A DNA stretch of 41,597 nt from positions 1 through 41,597 of the IMG/VR virus record IMGVR_UViG_2537561603_000003; one strand, given 5' to 3'. This document shows positions 10,174 through 41,597 of the stretch, one piece after another (position 1 is the stretch's first letter; each line of letters starts with the position of its first letter). This stretch comes from a virus. Its lineage: Duplodnaviria; Heunggongvirae; Uroviricota; Caudoviricetes. A program made the position numbers and the translations under genes. The notes under the pieces are model-generated. The model saw nothing but the letters and a program-made list of their open reading frames with translations. It searched no databases and was not told the origin of the DNA.

Positions 10174-11073
10174 ATGACAAATACAGCAAAAATACTCAAC
10201 TTCTGCAGAGGTAACTTTGCCAAACAGGAGCGTAATGTGGCAGATCTCGATGATGGTTACGCCAGACTATCAAATATGCTGCTTGAGGCTTATTCAGGCG
10301 CAGATCTGACCAAGCGACAGTTTAAAGTGCTGCTTGCCATTCTGCGTAAAACCTATGGGTGGAATAAACCAATGGACAGAATCACCGATTCTCAACTTAG
10401 CGAGATTACAAAGTTACCCGTCAAACGGTGCAATGAAGCCAAGTTAGAACTCGTCAGAATGAATATTATCAAGCAACAATGCGGCATGTTTGGACCAAAT
10501 AAAAACATCTCAGAATGGTGCATCCCTCAAAACGAGGGAAAATCCCCTAAAACGAGGGATAAAACATCCCTCAAATTGGGGGATTGCTATCCCTCAAAAC
10601 AGGGGGACACAAAAGACACTAATACAAAAGAAAAAAGAAAAGATTATTCGTCAGAGAATTCTGGCGAATCCTCTGACCAGCCAGAAAACGATCTTTCTGT
10701 GGTGAAACCGGATGCTGCAATTCAGAGCGGCAGCAAGTGGGGGACAGCAGAAGACCTGACCGCCGCAGAGTGGATGTTTGACATGGTGAAGACCATCGCA
10801 CCATCAGCCAGAAAACCGAATTTTGCAGGGTGGGCTAACGATATCCGCCTGATGCGTGAACGTGATGGACGTAACCACCGCGACATGTGCGTGCTGTTCC
10901 GCTGGGCATGCCAGGACAACTTCTGGTCCGGTAACGTGCTGAGTCCGGCTAAACTCCGCGACAAGTGGACCCAGCTCGAAATCAACCGTAACAAGCAACA
11001 GGCAGTCGTGACAGCCAGCAAACCAAAACTCGACCTGACAAACACAGACTGGATTTACGGGGTGGATCTATGA
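10174..11073 (+). CDS. O: Replication initiator O
   Basis: 299-aa product MTNTAKILNFCRGNFAKQERNVADLDDGYARLSNMLLEAYSGADLTKRQFKVLLAILRKTYGWNKP matches lambda O. Confidence 0.95.
   Translation: MTNTAKILNFCRGNFAKQERNVADLDDGYARLSNMLLEAYSGADLTKRQFKVLLAILRKTYGWNKPMDRITDSQLSEITKLPVKRCNEAKLELVRMNIIKQQCGMFGPNKNISEWCIPQNEGKSPKTRDKTSLKLGDCYPSKQGDTKDTNTKEKRKDYSSENSGESSDQPENDLSVVKPDAAIQSGSKWGTAEDLTAAEWMFDMVKTIAPSARKPNFAGWANDIRLMRERDGRNHRDMCVLFRWACQDNFWSGNVLSPAKLRDKWTQLEINRNKQQAVVTASKPKLDLTNTDWIYGVDL
10521..10650. repeat. Lambda-type replication origin (four iterons plus AT-rich tract) inside O
   Basis: Four tandem iterons of about 19-24 bp (catccctcaaaacgaggga, aaatcccctaaaacgaggga, ...atccctcaaattggggga, ...atccctcaaaacaggggga) followed by an A/T-rich stretch at 10608-10650. 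Confidence 0.8.
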
Positions 11074-18796: not shown

Positions 18797-19702
18797 TTAA
18801 CTGATATATCCATGAGCTTTGAGATAATTTTCCGCAATAATTATACCTACTGGATTGATGACTAGTGAGTCAAGTTCTGTAAGGGTTGAAATACCAAAAG
18901 AGTCGAGAACTAATTTTGTAGCTGGGAATGCTTCATAAAATGATGCATCAGATGTAAGAGTGTCATAACCCGTTCTTTTTGATAATAACTCTAAGTAATT
19001 GATATTATATATTTTATCTGAGAAAAATACGCCTTTAATTTCTAATAGCTGCTGATTTAGGCGTTTGAGGGTGAAATGTTCTCCAAGAAATTTTATATAA
19101 TCTGTTTCATAAACAGCATACATTGACCTATGGATCATGTAATTTTCTTCCAAGGAAATGTTAGGTAGTGAAAAATGAGTACTTTTTTTCTCTGCAAGTT
19201 CTGTGATATTTATACTTCCTATCATCTTATTGATTGAACGTAAAAAATATACAAATGCCAAAAACTTAATATCATTAGTGGTCAGTCTGGATGTTGTATC
19301 TAACGCTTGATCGATCAAAATGCTTTGGTCTTCTTGATCGTTTTCAATTTTAGTAACTATTAACTCCTTAAGAAGTTCTGATTTTGCATCAAACCCCTTT
19401 CTTGCGACCTGAACGACTGCTTGATTGAGGGTGTACTGAATATCGGGATCAGCGAGTTTTGCTCTTAGTTTTTCATCAACATCTTTAGATAGTTTTTCTG
19501 CAATTTGGTGACCAAATTCTTGAGCCCGTGAGTCGACTAAAGCGAATGCATCTTCACGAAGCGAAGCCATTTCACTTTTGACCATTAACTGGCAAATAGC
19601 CATGACCTCAGTAGTGGTGTTGCCAAAGTAGGCATCACCTGTAACTTGTATAGCTGAGGAGTTATCACCCACACTTTGACCGGATTTCTCGAATAAGCTC
19701 AT
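18797..19702 (-). CDS. Hypothetical 301-aa protein of the antisense accessory island
   Basis: ATG at 19700-19702 overlaps the stop of the upstream membrane-protein gene (ATGA); AT-rich by eye; no motif recognised. Confidence 0.6.
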   Translation of the reverse strand: MSLFEKSGQSVGDNSSAIQVTGDAYFGNTTTEVMAICQLMVKSEMASLREDAFALVDSRAQEFGHQIAEKLSKDVDEKLRAKLADPDIQYTLNQAVVQVARKGFDAKSELLKELIVTKIENDQEDQSILIDQALDTTSRLTTNDIKFLAFVYFLRSINKMIGSINITELAEKKSTHFSLPNISLEENYMIHRSMYAVYETDYIKFLGEHFTLKRLNQQLLEIKGVFFSDKIYNINYLELLSKRTGYDTLTSDASFYEAFPATKLVLDSFGISTLTELDSLVINPVGIIIAENYLKAHGYIS

Positions 19703-19944
19703 TCTTTGTCCCTTTCATTAATAGTTATGTTGCCACCAATTTGTATACCGCTAGAGTTATCGCCGATTGTTTGGCTAACACCTTGCTCTTTAGCTTTGTT
19801 GCTTTTTAGATTTGCTAAGGCTGTTAGAAAAACGACCAAACTCGCTAATGCTGCTAGCGCTGTGGATAATGTTTGACTGGTTATGGCTTGATAGCCAAAG
19901 CCTAAAGCCGAACAAAAAGATACAAATACGATTAATTTTCTCAC
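19699..19944 (-). CDS. Small 2-TM membrane protein, about 81 aa
   Basis: Two hydrophobic helices (LIVFVSFCSALGFGY and LSTALAALASLVVFLTALANL); proposed GTG start at 19942-19944 has a GGAGA RBS. The track start (GTG at 20001) would overlap terS. Confidence 0.5.
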   Translation of the reverse strand: MRKLIVFVSFCSALGFGYQAITSQTLSTALAALASLVVFLTALANLKSNKAKEQGVSQTIGDNSSGIQIGGNITINERDKE

Positions 19945-35209: not shown

Positions 35210-35551
35210 ATGAGGGGTATTATTTTTCTGTTAGCTGTCTTTTCTGCGTGCAGCGCGTGGGCGGATGGCTTCACGGTTAAATGCGGTGGCTACACTATGG
35301 TTGCAAACCAGGGCGAGTTATCGACAATCAACGGTGAAAGAGTTACCTCTCAAAAAATCACCGAACTGGGTACCAATGGTTTGAAAGTAGACATGGGGCT
35401 TATGCCTGCCAAAGACGGTAACAACTACGGCTTTGAATACATTCGTCGCCCTGGTACCGAAACGCGATTCCTTAATGTCCAACTGCTGCAGAACAGCATG
35501 GATGCGCCGAAAATCATCGGTTCCTTTCCATGCAAAAAGATTGTTGATTAA
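35210..35551 (+). CDS. Secreted 113-aa protein (moron in the baseplate cluster)
   Basis: N-terminus MRGIIFLLAVFSACSAWADGF is a signal peptide (possible lipobox FSAC or AWA-D cleavage); starts 4 nt after the previous stop. Confidence 0.55.
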   Translation: MRGIIFLLAVFSACSAWADGFTVKCGGYTMVANQGELSTINGERVTSQKITELGTNGLKVDMGLMPAKDGNNYGFEYIRRPGTETRFLNVQLLQNSMDAPKIIGSFPCKKIVD

Positions 35552-35604
35552 TCACTCGTAATTATAATGTGATACTTCTACTTTCACGATAAGGAATTTG
35601 TCGC

Positions 35605-35844
35605 ATGTTCGGATTTGATAAATTAATAACTCCAAAAATCATCAACGTTCTGTATGGCATCACAATGTTACTTCTGGTTGTTGCCGCCATTATAACGTTT
35701 GTTAATGGGAAGGCTGCTGGCGCTTTAGTGCTTTTGTTATGTGCTGTATTTTGCCGAATATTCTTTGAGTGCATCATGGTTTCATTTAAAAACAATGAGT
35801 ATCTTCGCCGAATAGCTGAAGCGTTAGAAGCAAACAAGCAGTAA
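35605..35844 (+). CDS. Small membrane protein, 79 aa, two predicted TM helices
   Basis: ATG at 35605 with an AAGGAA RBS (35591-35596); hydrophobic stretches VLYGITMLLLVVAAIITFV and ALVLLLCAVFCRIFF. Confidence 0.5.
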   Translation: MFGFDKLITPKIINVLYGITMLLLVVAAIITFVNGKAAGALVLLLCAVFCRIFFECIMVSFKNNEYLRRIAEALEANKQ

Positions 35845-38208: not shown

Positions 38209-38885
38209 GCAAATACACCGAACTAATCACAAACCATCACGCCACCAAACCTAAATTTCTTGCGCATGTTGATCTGATGACCCGGCCACTTATTGATGTT
38301 GCGGCTGCCACCAGAGGGCTGATTACTGCATTTGATATTGACTCTGCGGTTGGTATGCAACTTGACATTCTGGGATTGTGGATCGGACGTAGCCGTGTTG
38401 TCAGCCAGCCTATTTCAGGTGTCTATTTCAGCTGGGATACCGACGGGCTTGGATATGATCAGGGTGTATGGCAGGGGCCATATGATCCTGATTCTGGATA
38501 CATGTATCTCAGCGATGAAACTTATCGTGTCATTCTTAAAGCGAAGATTGCGATTAATAACTGGGACGGACGGAATGATTCGCTTCCGGCAATTCTTGAC
38601 GCGGCAACAGCAGGATCCGGGCTGCGAATGCAGATAGTCGATAACCAGGACATGACGATATCGGTCTGGGTCTTTCCTGATACTGATATTTCAGATGTAT
38701 CGCGTGAGTTAATTGCGGCAATTAAACAGGGGTATCTCACAGTAAAAGCCGCCGGGGTATGGGCGGGTGGCATTGAAACACCTTCGGTGGAAACCCCATC
38801 GGAAGGCTCAAAATTTTTTGGTTTTGATATGGATAACGAATTCATCAGTGGTTTTGATGTAGGAGCATGGGGAGTATTACTCTGA
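38205..38885 (+). CDS. Tail/baseplate protein (gpI-like, putative)
   Basis: 226-aa ORF coupled (ATGA) to the J-like gene. Confidence 0.45.
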   Translation: MSKYTELITNHHATKPKFLAHVDLMTRPLIDVAAATRGLITAFDIDSAVGMQLDILGLWIGRSRVVSQPISGVYFSWDTDGLGYDQGVWQGPYDPDSGYMYLSDETYRVILKAKIAINNWDGRNDSLPAILDAATAGSGLRMQIVDNQDMTISVWVFPDTDISDVSRELIAAIKQGYLTVKAAGVWAGGIETPSVETPSEGSKFFGFDMDNEFISGFDVGAWGVLL

Positions 38886-39622
38886 TGGCGAAAAATGACT
38901 TTAAAGCGTTTGCAACGGGTAAAAATGCCAATGTTATGTCGCAGGAGGAATGGGAAGCGTTGCCTGCGCTTTTATCCGGATTTACAGCAGGGAAAGCATC
39001 CAGTGCGCAAGTCAACAAGGCTATTCGGCAGGCCAGCTTTATCGCGGCAGCGCTGGCGCAGTACACCGCCAACAAAAGCGGGCTGGATGTACTTGATGAT
39101 GGTGATCTGAACGGGTTCATTATCAAAATGACCACCGCGTTCGGTAAGGATTTCCAGGCGCTTGATGCCACGCTGACGGCACTGGCATCACTAACGGGTG
39201 CAGCTAATAAATTGCCATATTTCAATGGCAATGACACCATGGCCCTGACTGGTCTAACGGATATTGGCCGCACTGTTATTGGTAGCCCGGATGCAGGTGC
39301 AGCGCAGAACAATCTAGGGTTTTCATTTAATGGAACAATAAATTCATTTGTTTCAAAAGGGCCGGGATTGCTGATTAAACAGGGTGGGAAAGTCACGGCA
39401 CCTGATGGTACGGGAAACTCCCTTGTAATCAATTTCCCAATTGCATTTCCGAATGGTTGTGTTGATTGTTTTGCTATATTTGAGGATGGTGTCCCGAACC
39501 AAACACCATTTGAGATATCCATCGTTCCTGAAAATAATAGAATGATAGTCTTTATTTTGAGCACAGGTGGTTCAGTTTTCTTCAATAACAGATCATTACG
39601 TTGGATGGCTGAGGGGTTTTGA
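38885..39622 (+). CDS. Tail fibre protein
   Basis: Segment TLTALASLTGAANKLPYFNGNDTMALTGLTDIGRTVIG resembles the conserved motif of lambda Stf / P2 H-type fibres (…ALAGLSTAKNKLPYF…); ATG at 38885 overlaps the previous stop. Confidence 0.7.
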   Translation: MAKNDFKAFATGKNANVMSQEEWEALPALLSGFTAGKASSAQVNKAIRQASFIAAALAQYTANKSGLDVLDDGDLNGFIIKMTTAFGKDFQALDATLTALASLTGAANKLPYFNGNDTMALTGLTDIGRTVIGSPDAGAAQNNLGFSFNGTINSFVSKGPGLLIKQGGKVTAPDGTGNSLVINFPIAFPNGCVDCFAIFEDGVPNQTPFEISIVPENNRMIVFILSTGGSVFFNNRSLRWMAEGF

Positions 39623-39623
39623 T

Positions 39624-40067
39624 ATGATGAATTACAACTATTATTACAGTCCAAAAATGAATAGCTTTTACCCAGCAGATCTTCGCAAGCGATATGAACA
39701 GGCTGGTTCATGGCCCTCCGATGCGCTTGGGATTAGCGATGAGATATTCAACCAGTATTCAGTTTCCCCGCCAGCAGGAAAAATAAGAGTATCGAGCGGT
39801 GATGGATTGCCATCATGGGGAGAAATCCCTCCGCCCACTCATGAAGAGCAAAAAGCTATGGCGGTTTCAAAAAAACAATCACTGATTGATCAAGCTAATG
39901 AATACATAAATGGTAAACAATGGCCGGGTAAAGCGGCGCTTGGGCGTCTAAAAGATGAAGAATTGGAAAGATATAGTATTTGGCTAGATTATCTTGATAC
40001 ATTGTATGCTGTAGATATTTCTACAGCACCAGAAATTATTTGGCCCACTTCGCCAGAAAAATTGTGA
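39624..40067 (+). CDS. Tail fibre assembly chaperone (Tfa)
   Basis: Product MMNYNYYYSPKMNSFYPADLRKRYEQAGSWPSDALGISDEIFNQY... is a typical Tfa N-terminus; starts 2 nt after the fibre stop. Confidence 0.8.
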   Translation: MMNYNYYYSPKMNSFYPADLRKRYEQAGSWPSDALGISDEIFNQYSVSPPAGKIRVSSGDGLPSWGEIPPPTHEEQKAMAVSKKQSLIDQANEYINGKQWPGKAALGRLKDEELERYSIWLDYLDTLYAVDISTAPEIIWPTSPEKL

Positions 40068-40078
40068 CAGAGCCTAAT

Positions 40079-41104
40079 TTAGGCTCGTGCTTCCTTTCTT
40101 AAAAATAAGGACCTCAATATCGAATTTTTCTCTATGAAATGCCAACACAACATAGCCATTGCAAGATTTAACAAAAAGACAAGTATCCAACTAGCAATAC
40201 CGTGAGTTCTTAAGAATGTATCTGGATTTCTGTCCAGATACATTAGCAATGGCAGCTGCATCAAATAAAATGAATAGCTGATGTCACCCAAATAAATAAG
40301 GCAAGATGTTAATATGTTTTTGGTTATTTCTAGGTTTCCCAAATAACATATAATTAATGCAAGTGTTGGTATTATTAAGTAGTTTGTATCCATGTTAACA
40401 TCGGATAGTGTGGTAGCATAAAAAAACATAGTCACAGAAATATAAAAAGTAATATTATTTATTCTTTTCCCATTTATGAAATACATGGCTGCACATATTC
40501 CGACAATAAATTCAGGAAGCCTAAAAATCGGAGTGGCGTAGTAAACGGAACCCACGGTTGGCCCACCAATAATCAGAGAAATTGGAACAAGCACAGCAGA
40601 AAAACCGTATGCAAAAAGTGTTATGAAAATCAAGTTGTCTTTATTTATTATCTTTAGTATATAAGGGAATAAAGAATAAAAAAACATCTCAACTGATACT
40701 GACCAGGTTCCACCAAAATTCCACAGGCTGAATGATTGGTATATCCATGCCTGCATACATACTAAATATAGGACTAAGCATGATATAATTTGCCCTGAGG
40801 TTAAATTGTCAGTAAAAAGAAATGGGAATGATATAATTCCGCAGCATAAATAAGCTGGGTAAATTCTTGCTATTCTTTTTTTAAAGTAATCAAGCAACTG
40901 AGAATCATAATAATTGTATGTAAGGACAAATCCAGAAAGCATAAAGAATATGCTCATTCCTATTGCCCCGTTTGAAATGGTTTTATTTAAATGAGAACCA
41001 AAGTCAACTGGGGCTCGCATATTGATATGAAAAATAAATACATAAAATGCAGCAAAGAACCGCAATATGGTGATGCCATCCATTTTGTTTTTTGATGAAT
41101 TCAT
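40079..41104 (-). CDS. Integral-membrane acyltransferase (acyltransferase-3 / O-antigen acetylase-like)
   Basis: 341-aa polytopic membrane protein; N-terminus ...GITILRFFAAFYVFIFHIN... is the signature start of acyltransferase-3 family enzymes (Oac/OafA type); very AT-rich; antisense to the tail genes. Confidence 0.75.
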   Translation of the reverse strand: MNSSKNKMDGITILRFFAAFYVFIFHINMRAPVDFGSHLNKTISNGAIGMSIFFMLSGFVLTYNYYDSQLLDYFKKRIARIYPAYLCCGIISFPFLFTDNLTSGQIISCLVLYLVCMQAWIYQSFSLWNFGGTWSVSVEMFFYSLFPYILKIINKDNLIFITLFAYGFSAVLVPISLIIGGPTVGSVYYATPIFRLPEFIVGICAAMYFINGKRINNITFYISVTMFFYATTLSDVNMDTNYLIIPTLALIICYLGNLEITKNILTSCLIYLGDISYSFYLMQLPLLMYLDRNPDTFLRTHGIASWILVFLLNLAMAMLCWHFIEKNSILRSLFLRKEARA

Positions 41105-41164
41105 CTGATAATCTCACTTAACGATGTTAGAAAGCATTTTAACTTTAATTGTATTTTAGGTATA

Positions 41165-41281
41165 GAGTTTCAGAATCGAAAGGTTGTGAGGAAGGCGGGG
41201 GAAACGTGCCAGCGTGTGGCAATCATTTACGACGTCGGCGTTTCGACACTCTACCGAAAATTCCCGGTAGGTAGTGGATAG
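41165..41281 (+). pseudogene. 3' remnant of a Pin/Gin/Hin-type DNA invertase gene
   Basis: Frame reads ...EFQNRKVVRKAGETCQRVAIIYDVGVSTLYRKFPVGSG-stop; the VAIIYDVGVSTLYxxFP segment matches the C-terminal HTH of serine invertases as recalled. No catalytic N-domain upstream. Confidence 0.55.
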
Positions 41282-41330
41282 ACATGATGCAGGCTGCCGG
41301 TAAATGTTTAGGCTGGCAGCCTGCACAATT

Positions 41331-41597
41331 TTACAGCCCAACTTGGCGAACTGTCGGGAACTCAGATACCAGCCACATATCGGCCTCTTCAAACATATCC
41401 TCCAGCATGCGGTTCAGCTTTTCCCGATCGCTTTTACTGGCATCGCTATTCAAGCCGTTCGCCTGCATCGGCTTCACCCTTACTTCGGCATCAGGGAAGA
41501 TCTGGTGCACTCGTTTCGTCAGCTCTGCCAGAATAATTTCTCTGGCCCCTTCGAGCCCCTCTACATTTCGCTTGTCATAAACCAGTTCAACGAACAT
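41331..41597 (-). CDS. DinI-like protein
   Basis: 88-aa product MFVELVYDKRNVEGLEGAREIILAELTKRVHQIFPDAEVRVKPMQANGLN...MWLVSE with the DinI-family pattern; ATG at 41595-41597 is the last codon of the window. Confidence 0.65.
   Translation of the reverse strand: MFVELVYDKRNVEGLEGAREIILAELTKRVHQIFPDAEVRVKPMQANGLNSDASKSDREKLNRMLEDMFEEADMWLVSEFPTVRQVGL

Follow-up and report, generated by a model that had tools for sequence, protein, structure and literature searches.

An AT3-only acyltransferase gene beside an invertase stump at the tail-fiber end of an Escherichia coli prophage

Phage O-antigen acetylases and the right end of the prophage

The closest described counterparts to the locus reported here are serotype-converting enzymes of temperate phages. 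Oac (OacA) of Shigella phage Sf6 O-acetylates the O antigen and thereby converts the serotype. It consists of an acyltransferase-3 (AT3) domain only and is ∼335–340 aa long; its gene lies near the prophage end, convergent with the tailspike gene, with a terminator hairpin between the two. GtrC of Salmonella phage BTP1, a protein of the OafB type, also has an AT3 domain, and is encoded in a gtrA-gtrC pair that is likewise convergent with the tailspike gene. BTP1 GtrC acetylates the rhamnose of the O antigen and in this way blocks the tailspike of BTP1, and its role in phage exclusion is documented (PMC9558356). Other substrates of AT3-only enzymes include ECA, glucans, capsules, and Nod factors (PMC9558356).

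The stretch of DNA analyzed here (the window, 41,597 nt) is a whole Escherichia coli prophage, inserted between torS and torT (by its coordinates in strain Rb-23), and its final 2.8 kb is found, at 100% identity, in the complete chromosomes of three E. coli strains (Rb-23, TUM14697, and 1002W03). The early region is lambda-like, with int, xis, exo/bet/gam, N, a cI-like repressor gene, O/P, nin genes, Q, and lysis genes, while the virion module is of another type and encodes a baseplate (spike protein, baseplate J, and a DUF2612 wedge), a short fiber, and Tfa. The acyltransferase locus is found at the far right end of the prophage, right before a DinI-family gene and the host gene torT.

The tail fiber gene (38885–39622, plus strand; 245 aa) encodes a C-terminal Gp53-like_C domain (Pfam). 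Its N-terminal third, to ∼39230–39270, is common to prophages of the same lineage (94–95% DNA identity), and its C-terminal, receptor-binding part is particular to this module, with GC content down to ∼0.39–0.44. The next gene (39624–40067, plus strand) encodes the tail fiber assembly protein, Tfa (147 aa; Pfam Caudo_TAP, E 1.3e-30). It is followed on the minus strand by the acyltransferase gene (40079–41104; 341 aa, ATG start), which was delineated as an open reading frame and assigned by Pfam, PHROG, and PGAP; it is more AT-rich than the window as a whole (GC content 0.33 versus 0.488). The first-pass annotation had placed an antisense, AT-rich acyltransferase-3 gene after the fiber and Tfa genes, and the reading frame is exactly there.

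Between the convergent tfa and acyltransferase stops, folding identifies a hairpin (40071–40087) with a 7-bp stem, GAGCCTA-ATT-TAGGCTC, which overlaps the acyltransferase stop codon. Although it is not among the matches of a consensus terminator scan, it folds at −13.5 kcal/mol on the minus strand (z −3.8; plus strand, z −1.9), is placed as the annotated terminator between the Sf6 tailspike gene and oac, and is probably a terminator shared by tfa and the acyltransferase gene. On the other side, an AT-rich spacer of 90 bp (41105–41194), delimited by sequence comparison, precedes the acyltransferase start, followed by an invertase pseudogene (41195–41281, plus strand), a strong 11–14-bp hairpin (41288–41325; −28.2 kcal/mol, z −5.2), and, last before the prophage ends on the right, the DinI-family gene (41331–41597, minus strand; PGAP and Pfam), which has the same orientation as the acyltransferase gene.

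The gene therefore has the layout of the phage O-antigen acetylases, in that it is carried by a temperate phage, beside and convergent with receptor-binding genes, and near a prophage end. The likeness to Sf6 extends to the order of receptor-binding gene, hairpin, and convergent acyltransferase gene. However, Sf6 is a P22-like podovirus with a tailspike, in which oac adjoins int, whereas the window phage has a baseplate, a fiber, and Tfa, and its acyltransferase gene adjoins the invertase stump and dinI.

The invertase stump and the fiber switch of related prophages

The slot occupied by the acyltransferase gene, with its flanks, is also that of the invertible tail-fiber segments (G with Gin in Mu, C with Cin in P1, P with Pin in e14), represented in this comparison by prophages of APEC37 and ECONIH4; the flanks in common are the constant fiber N-terminus, Tfa, the 3′ end of the invertase, the terminator, and dinI. 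In the APEC37 prophage, which has the same baseplate genes as the window, the order is fiber (plus), Tfa (plus), Tfa′ (minus), an alternative fiber C-terminus, Sv′ (minus), and recombinase (plus), and perfect 15-nt inverted cores, TTGGTTTGGGAGAAG and CTTCTCCCAAACCAA, are located inside the fiber gene and just 5′ of the recombinase gene. The ECONIH4 prophage has the same cassette design, with a Mu-type baseplate, and then dinI.

Similarity to the 186-aa recombinase of ECONIH4 begins sharply at 41195 (residue 157) and extends as far as the stop codon at 41281, with 90% identity in protein and 87.8–88.6% in DNA. The DNA similarity goes on past this stop, via a shared hairpin, and through dinI (88.6% over 403 nt). 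The segment matches Pfam HTH_7 (E 6e-6; 26.7 bits against a cut-off of 23.8), and PGAP annotates it as a partial gene without an N-terminus. Its 28 codons (residues 157–184 of the 186-aa homolog) are the only part of the invertase present; the first 156 codons are gone from the window, and with them the resolvase catalytic domain and its active-site serine. These alignments identify 41195–41281 as the stump of a gene for a Pin/Gin-type serine invertase, with only the C-terminal end left. The first-pass annotation was right in reporting an invertase remnant, as its alignment to invertases is significant from 41195 to 41281, but had assigned it ∼38 codons from 41165; the in-frame translation of 41165–41194 has no similarity to invertases.

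The stretch is short, and a 31-codon open reading frame with a GTG start (41186–41281) lies in frame with it, both of which would suit a coincidental match, or a small HTH protein that is functional and no stump of a switch. We consider this reading very nearly negligible, given that the DNA identity is to the 3′ end of a full-length invertase and continues into the terminator and dinI, that the HTH_7 match is above the Pfam cut-off, that an intact system is found in this slot in a same-lineage prophage, and that a sister allele (described below) has a longer stump with in-frame stops. Chance similarity, specifically, failed the alignment test.

The similarity of the window to its lineage ends at ∼39230–39270 (after ∼115–128 fiber codons) and resumes at 41195 (invertase) or 41325 (dinI). 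The intervening, window-specific block (∼39270–41194) comprises the receptor-binding end of the fiber, Tfa, and the acyltransferase, and the GC content along it changes from ∼0.50 to 0.39–0.44 (fiber end and Tfa) and then to 0.30–0.37 (acyltransferase). No complete E. coli genome, and no contig read, has this fiber C-terminus, this Tfa, or this acyltransferase without the other two. In A41 and 1223, two further prophages of the lineage, both the invertase and the acyltransferase are missing, which indicates that the tail module varies at this end.

Unlike the Mu/P1/e14-type segments, the window has no antisense pair of alternative fiber and Tfa genes (the antisense slot is filled by the acyltransferase gene), no crossover sites, and no invertase catalytic domain. 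The crossover core pattern AAACCNNGGTTT has no match near the fiber genes of the window, the 23–25-nt crossover sites of two relatives score at least as well against shuffled sequence as against the window, and the position equivalent to the left crossover site is degenerate; the residual crossover sites near the fiber genes for which the first-pass annotation had suggested a search were thus not found. The inversion system of the window is dead, and the fiber is fixed in one form. The proposal in the first-pass annotation that the acyltransferase gene had replaced the fiber-switching system agrees with the intact cassette and invertase of APEC37 in the same slot. Together, these comparisons support the view that the acyltransferase gene took the slot of the silent cassette half, a crossover site, and the complete invertase in an ancestor of the tail module.

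A minor observation concerns the break in the invertase, where the minus strand of 41166–41194 contains TTCCTCACAACC-TT, which resembles the outer half and core of the crossover sites of relatives. The match to the comparison site in ECONIH4, CTCTCACAAACC-TT, requires a 1-nt gap; ungapped, it amounts to 15 of 24–25 positions, no better than in shuffled sequence.

A sister allele, here called B-type (WP_000204789.1; 341 aa, 57% identical to the window protein), is present in 66 of 5426 complete E. coli genomes (∼1%). It occurs in BL21 and other B strains, in a decayed prophage at the lambda attachment site, as well as in NRZ14408, in a prophage with the baseplate lineage of the window, and in 3-72, in a prophage with a Mu-type tail at tRNA-Pro. 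At every locus examined, the order is that of the window: Tfa (plus), acyltransferase (minus), and truncated invertase (plus). However, the B-type invertase stump begins at residue 134–138, as opposed to 157, and bears in-frame stops; its DNA is 85–89.5% identical to pinE-type genes and ∼70% identical to the ECONIH4-type gene, to which the window stump is 88% identical. The DNA between stump and acyltransferase gene, as well as the Tfa, is unrelated to that of the window. Because the two alleles abut stumps of different invertases, the architecture arose at least twice, and the loss of a fiber-inversion system to an acyltransferase gene is a tidy example, in two independent versions, of a phage that has given up its host-range switch.

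That two alleles of only 57% identity lie next to stumps from separate invertase lineages, each truncated at its own residue, could also suggest a recurrent, selected swap of the silent cassette half and invertase for a receptor-modifying acyltransferase, by which host-range switching is traded for receptor masking; we regard this reading as rather doubtful. In a bolder version, capture of the gene may have been aided by the inversion machinery, through recombination at or near crossover sites, for which the half-site-like TTCCTCACAACC-TT, at a score equaled by shuffled sequence, would be the candidate trace.

A second, unrelated AT3 gene, of 381 aa, is also present in the decayed BL21 prophage at the lambda attachment site and in its relatives (loci L014, 9385–10530; L016; and L008, 3088–4233), 1.8 kb from the B-type acyltransferase gene, with a 445-aa open reading frame without a Pfam match between the two.

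The acyltransferase, its relatives, and its proposed role

The product of the gene at 40079–41104 is confirmed as an intact, AT3-only membrane acyltransferase. It matches Pfam Acyl_transf_3 (PF01757) at 92.4 bits, against a cut-off of 31 (E 3.8e-26), with residues 10–321 covering profile positions 3–325 of 326, and PHROG 3333, “O-acetyltransferase” (E 2.6e-40); PGAP names it “acyltransferase family protein” (WP_001088918.1). No SGNH domain was found with Pfam, and the protein is therefore termed AT3-only, like Sf6 Oac. Searches with NCBIfam equivalogs and PADLOC models returned no match. The sequence has the motifs R15-X10-H26, F53FMLSGF59, R77-I-A-R80, and S135-V-S-V-E139. In OafA/OafB, Lag-1, and Oac, the R/K-X10-H motif in the first transmembrane helix, FFxLSGF, and RxxR are functionally important (PMC9558356). 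In an alignment of 35 homologs (37–79% identity to the window protein), R15, H26, F53, F54, L56, S57, G58, F59, R77, S135, S137, and E139 are invariant, and R80, the second arginine of RxxR, is kept in at least 90% of the sequences. The segment M50-S-I-F-F-M-L-S-G-F59 departs from the pattern V-x-x-F-F-x-(I/V/L)-S-G-(F/W/Y) at only one of its 10 positions, where it has M instead of V.

The AlphaFold model is all-helical (pLDDT 91.7, pTM 0.90), and its best fold matches are HGSNAT and GWT1. These two proteins have in common the multi-helix transmembrane acyl-transfer fold of the TmAT superfamily (PMC12423673), and the model of the window protein has this fold as well.

The best matches among phage serotype-converting O-antigen acetyltransferases (Sf6 Oac, BTP1 GtrC, and phiV10 Oac) are 22–29% identical to the window protein, a likeness at the level of the family only. 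Sf6 Oac is only 22% identical, although its R-X10-H, FFxxSG, and RxxR motifs line up with those of the window protein in pairwise alignment. The AT3 part of BTP1 GtrC is 25% identical, and BTP1 GtrC differs further in being a 640-aa protein with a fused SGNH domain, compared with 341 aa and no SGNH domain here. Among sequenced phage genomes, there is no relative of the acyltransferase at 30% identity or above, and neither homology searches nor pairwise alignments revealed close kinship to an acetyltransferase with a proven O-antigen acceptor. The description “Oac/OafA-like” in the first-pass annotation accordingly suits an AT3-only membrane enzyme, but does not extend to close homology (22–25% identity to the nearest characterized O-antigen acetylases, and no NCBIfam equivalog). 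Since no characterized acyltransferase is close, the acceptor sugar cannot be read from homology.

Gene neighborhoods provide a second line of comparison. We inspected 43 loci with relatives at 35% identity or above (34 viral contigs and 9 others), and the downstream neighbor was nearly always convergent. Among the 30 distinct immediate downstream neighbors, 10 are Caudo_TAP proteins and at least 7 more have fiber or spike domains. A 79% homolog follows a fiber gene in a lambdoid Enterobacter prophage, a 55% homolog follows a gpG-like Tfa in a P2-like prophage, and homologs at 57–58% follow Tfa. At 46% identity, one homolog is found between int and the fiber genes of a Phytobacter prophage, and another is preceded by gtrA and convergent with a 739-aa protein just 3′ of the baseplate genes. 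Relatives with 35–79% identity therefore occupy the same position in lambdoid, P2-like, and other prophages. Some relatives at 40% identity are lone chromosomal genes without phage context.

On a short metagenomic contig (L011, 307–4872), three AT3 genes occur consecutively: the first encodes a protein 69% identical to that of the window, the second a 369-aa AT3 protein, and the third a 612-aa AT3-SGNH protein.

The spacer at 41105–41194 is presumed to hold the promoter and ribosome-binding site of the acyltransferase gene. Neither invertases nor the sequences that precede other alleles resemble it, and the similarity to the 79% and 69% alleles ends ∼15 nt 5′ of the ATG. A promoter scan of the spacer returned no site of 9/12 or better, and sequence inspection found only a weak TTCTGA-16-TACAAT on the minus strand. 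The hairpin at 41288–41325 is followed by a T-run on the plus strand, which identifies it as the terminator of the invertase; on the minus strand no U-run follows, so that dinI transcripts may read through toward the acyltransferase gene.

The empty promoter scan and the very low GC content, along with the confinement of fiber C-terminus, Tfa, and acyltransferase to one another's company, would be consistent with a passenger gene that has no role in the lysogen, either silent (through AT-rich silencing or for lack of a promoter) or non-functional, and linked to the fiber-Tfa module. Against this, the frame is intact, and the catalytic motifs are invariant or nearly so across homologs. All six of the alleles compared are full length, at 32–35% GC irrespective of host, and dN is 0.135 relative to the 79% allele, far below dS, as synonymous sites are saturated; this combination indicates purifying selection on the acyltransferase. 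The exact protein occurs in 239 blocks of a public assembly collection, and the module of dinI, stump, acyltransferase, Tfa, fiber, and baseplate is found at two chromosomal sites, by torT and by a murR/yfhB-side locus, from which it follows that prophages integrated at different chromosomal positions share a circulating tail module. Moreover, the sister allele outlived the decay of its BL21 prophage, and the co-oriented dinI, with no U-tract after the intervening hairpin, would allow read-through. We therefore hold the passenger reading to be quite improbable.

The explanation we favor, with fair though not high confidence and by analogy with the described systems, is that the gene is a moron whose AT3 product acylates a surface polysaccharide, most likely the O antigen, and acts in lysogenic conversion or receptor masking. 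As envisaged, an accessory, AT3-only inner-membrane enzyme of a temperate E. coli phage would be expressed from a weak promoter in 41105–41194 or by read-through from dinI. The acyl group, most likely acetyl from acetyl-CoA, would move from the cytoplasm via a ten-helix pore, and would be placed at the periplasmic face on a sugar of a surface polysaccharide, of which the LPS O antigen is the likeliest. The altered surface structure would be the target of the fixed fiber of this phage and of related phages, and the modified surface would protect the lysogen from the latter. The family, fold, motifs, purifying selection, position, and replacement of the switch are established by the comparisons above; the acyl donor and acceptor, the expression of the gene by the lysogen, and phage exclusion are all drawn from analogy, and the “O-antigen/serotype conversion” label of the first-pass annotation is on the same grounds plausible.

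An active enzyme could instead have another acceptor, such as the LPS core, ECA, capsule or colanic acid, or periplasmic glucans; phage adsorption might or might not be affected. The B-type allele is intact in E. coli B/BL21 although the surrounding prophage has decayed, and B strains are rough and without O antigen, so that the acceptor could be another surface glycan; a literature search found no described function for the B-type acyltransferase. The family-level similarity to O-antigen acetylases and the lone chromosomal relatives at 40% identity point in the same direction, and the AT3 family as a whole covers many acceptors (PMC9558356). On the other hand, the position by receptor-binding genes is consistent across many tail types and matches that of the proven Sf6 Oac and BTP1 GtrC, and the partner of one relative is GtrA, which forms part of O-antigen modification operons. 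We consider an acceptor other than the O antigen possible, if on the unlikely side.

Should the enzyme acylate the O antigen or another receptor glycan, prophages that carry it would change the surface chemistry of E. coli, with effects on phage susceptibility, serotyping, and possibly immune recognition. No new principle is involved, as this was already established by Sf6 oac and BTP1 gtrC; the gene is better described as an uncharacterized addition to the familiar phage genes for lysogenic conversion and receptor masking, with an acceptor sugar that we infer. The clade to which it belongs lies beside receptor-binding genes in several tail types and has no characterized member that we found, and it offers a practical marker for finding receptor-modification genes.

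Other accessory genes in the prophage

Additional low-GC or antisense genes were observed elsewhere in the window. Amid the baseplate genes, a two-gene insert of low GC content (35210–35844; 0.36–0.40) encodes two proteins, one of 113 aa, which has no Pfam match and a signal-peptide-like N-terminus, and a DUF4282 membrane protein of 79 aa. The same slot is filled in prophages of the lineage by a YafO toxin and a hypothetical protein (APEC37 and 1223) or by other open reading frames (A41), and looks like a second hot spot for accessory genes. On the minus strand at 18797–19944, an antisense gene pair separates the lysis genes from the terminase genes, and encodes a 301-aa protein (PGAP “LPO_1073/Vpar_1526 family”) and an 81-aa open reading frame; neither matched Pfam or PADLOC, and the pair may be further accessory or defense cargo. 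Lastly, PGAP flags as frameshifted both the lambda O-like replication gene at ∼10194–11073 and torS, which lies beside the integrase end, just left of the window in Rb-23; these flags may reflect a replication-defective prophage, or assembly errors.
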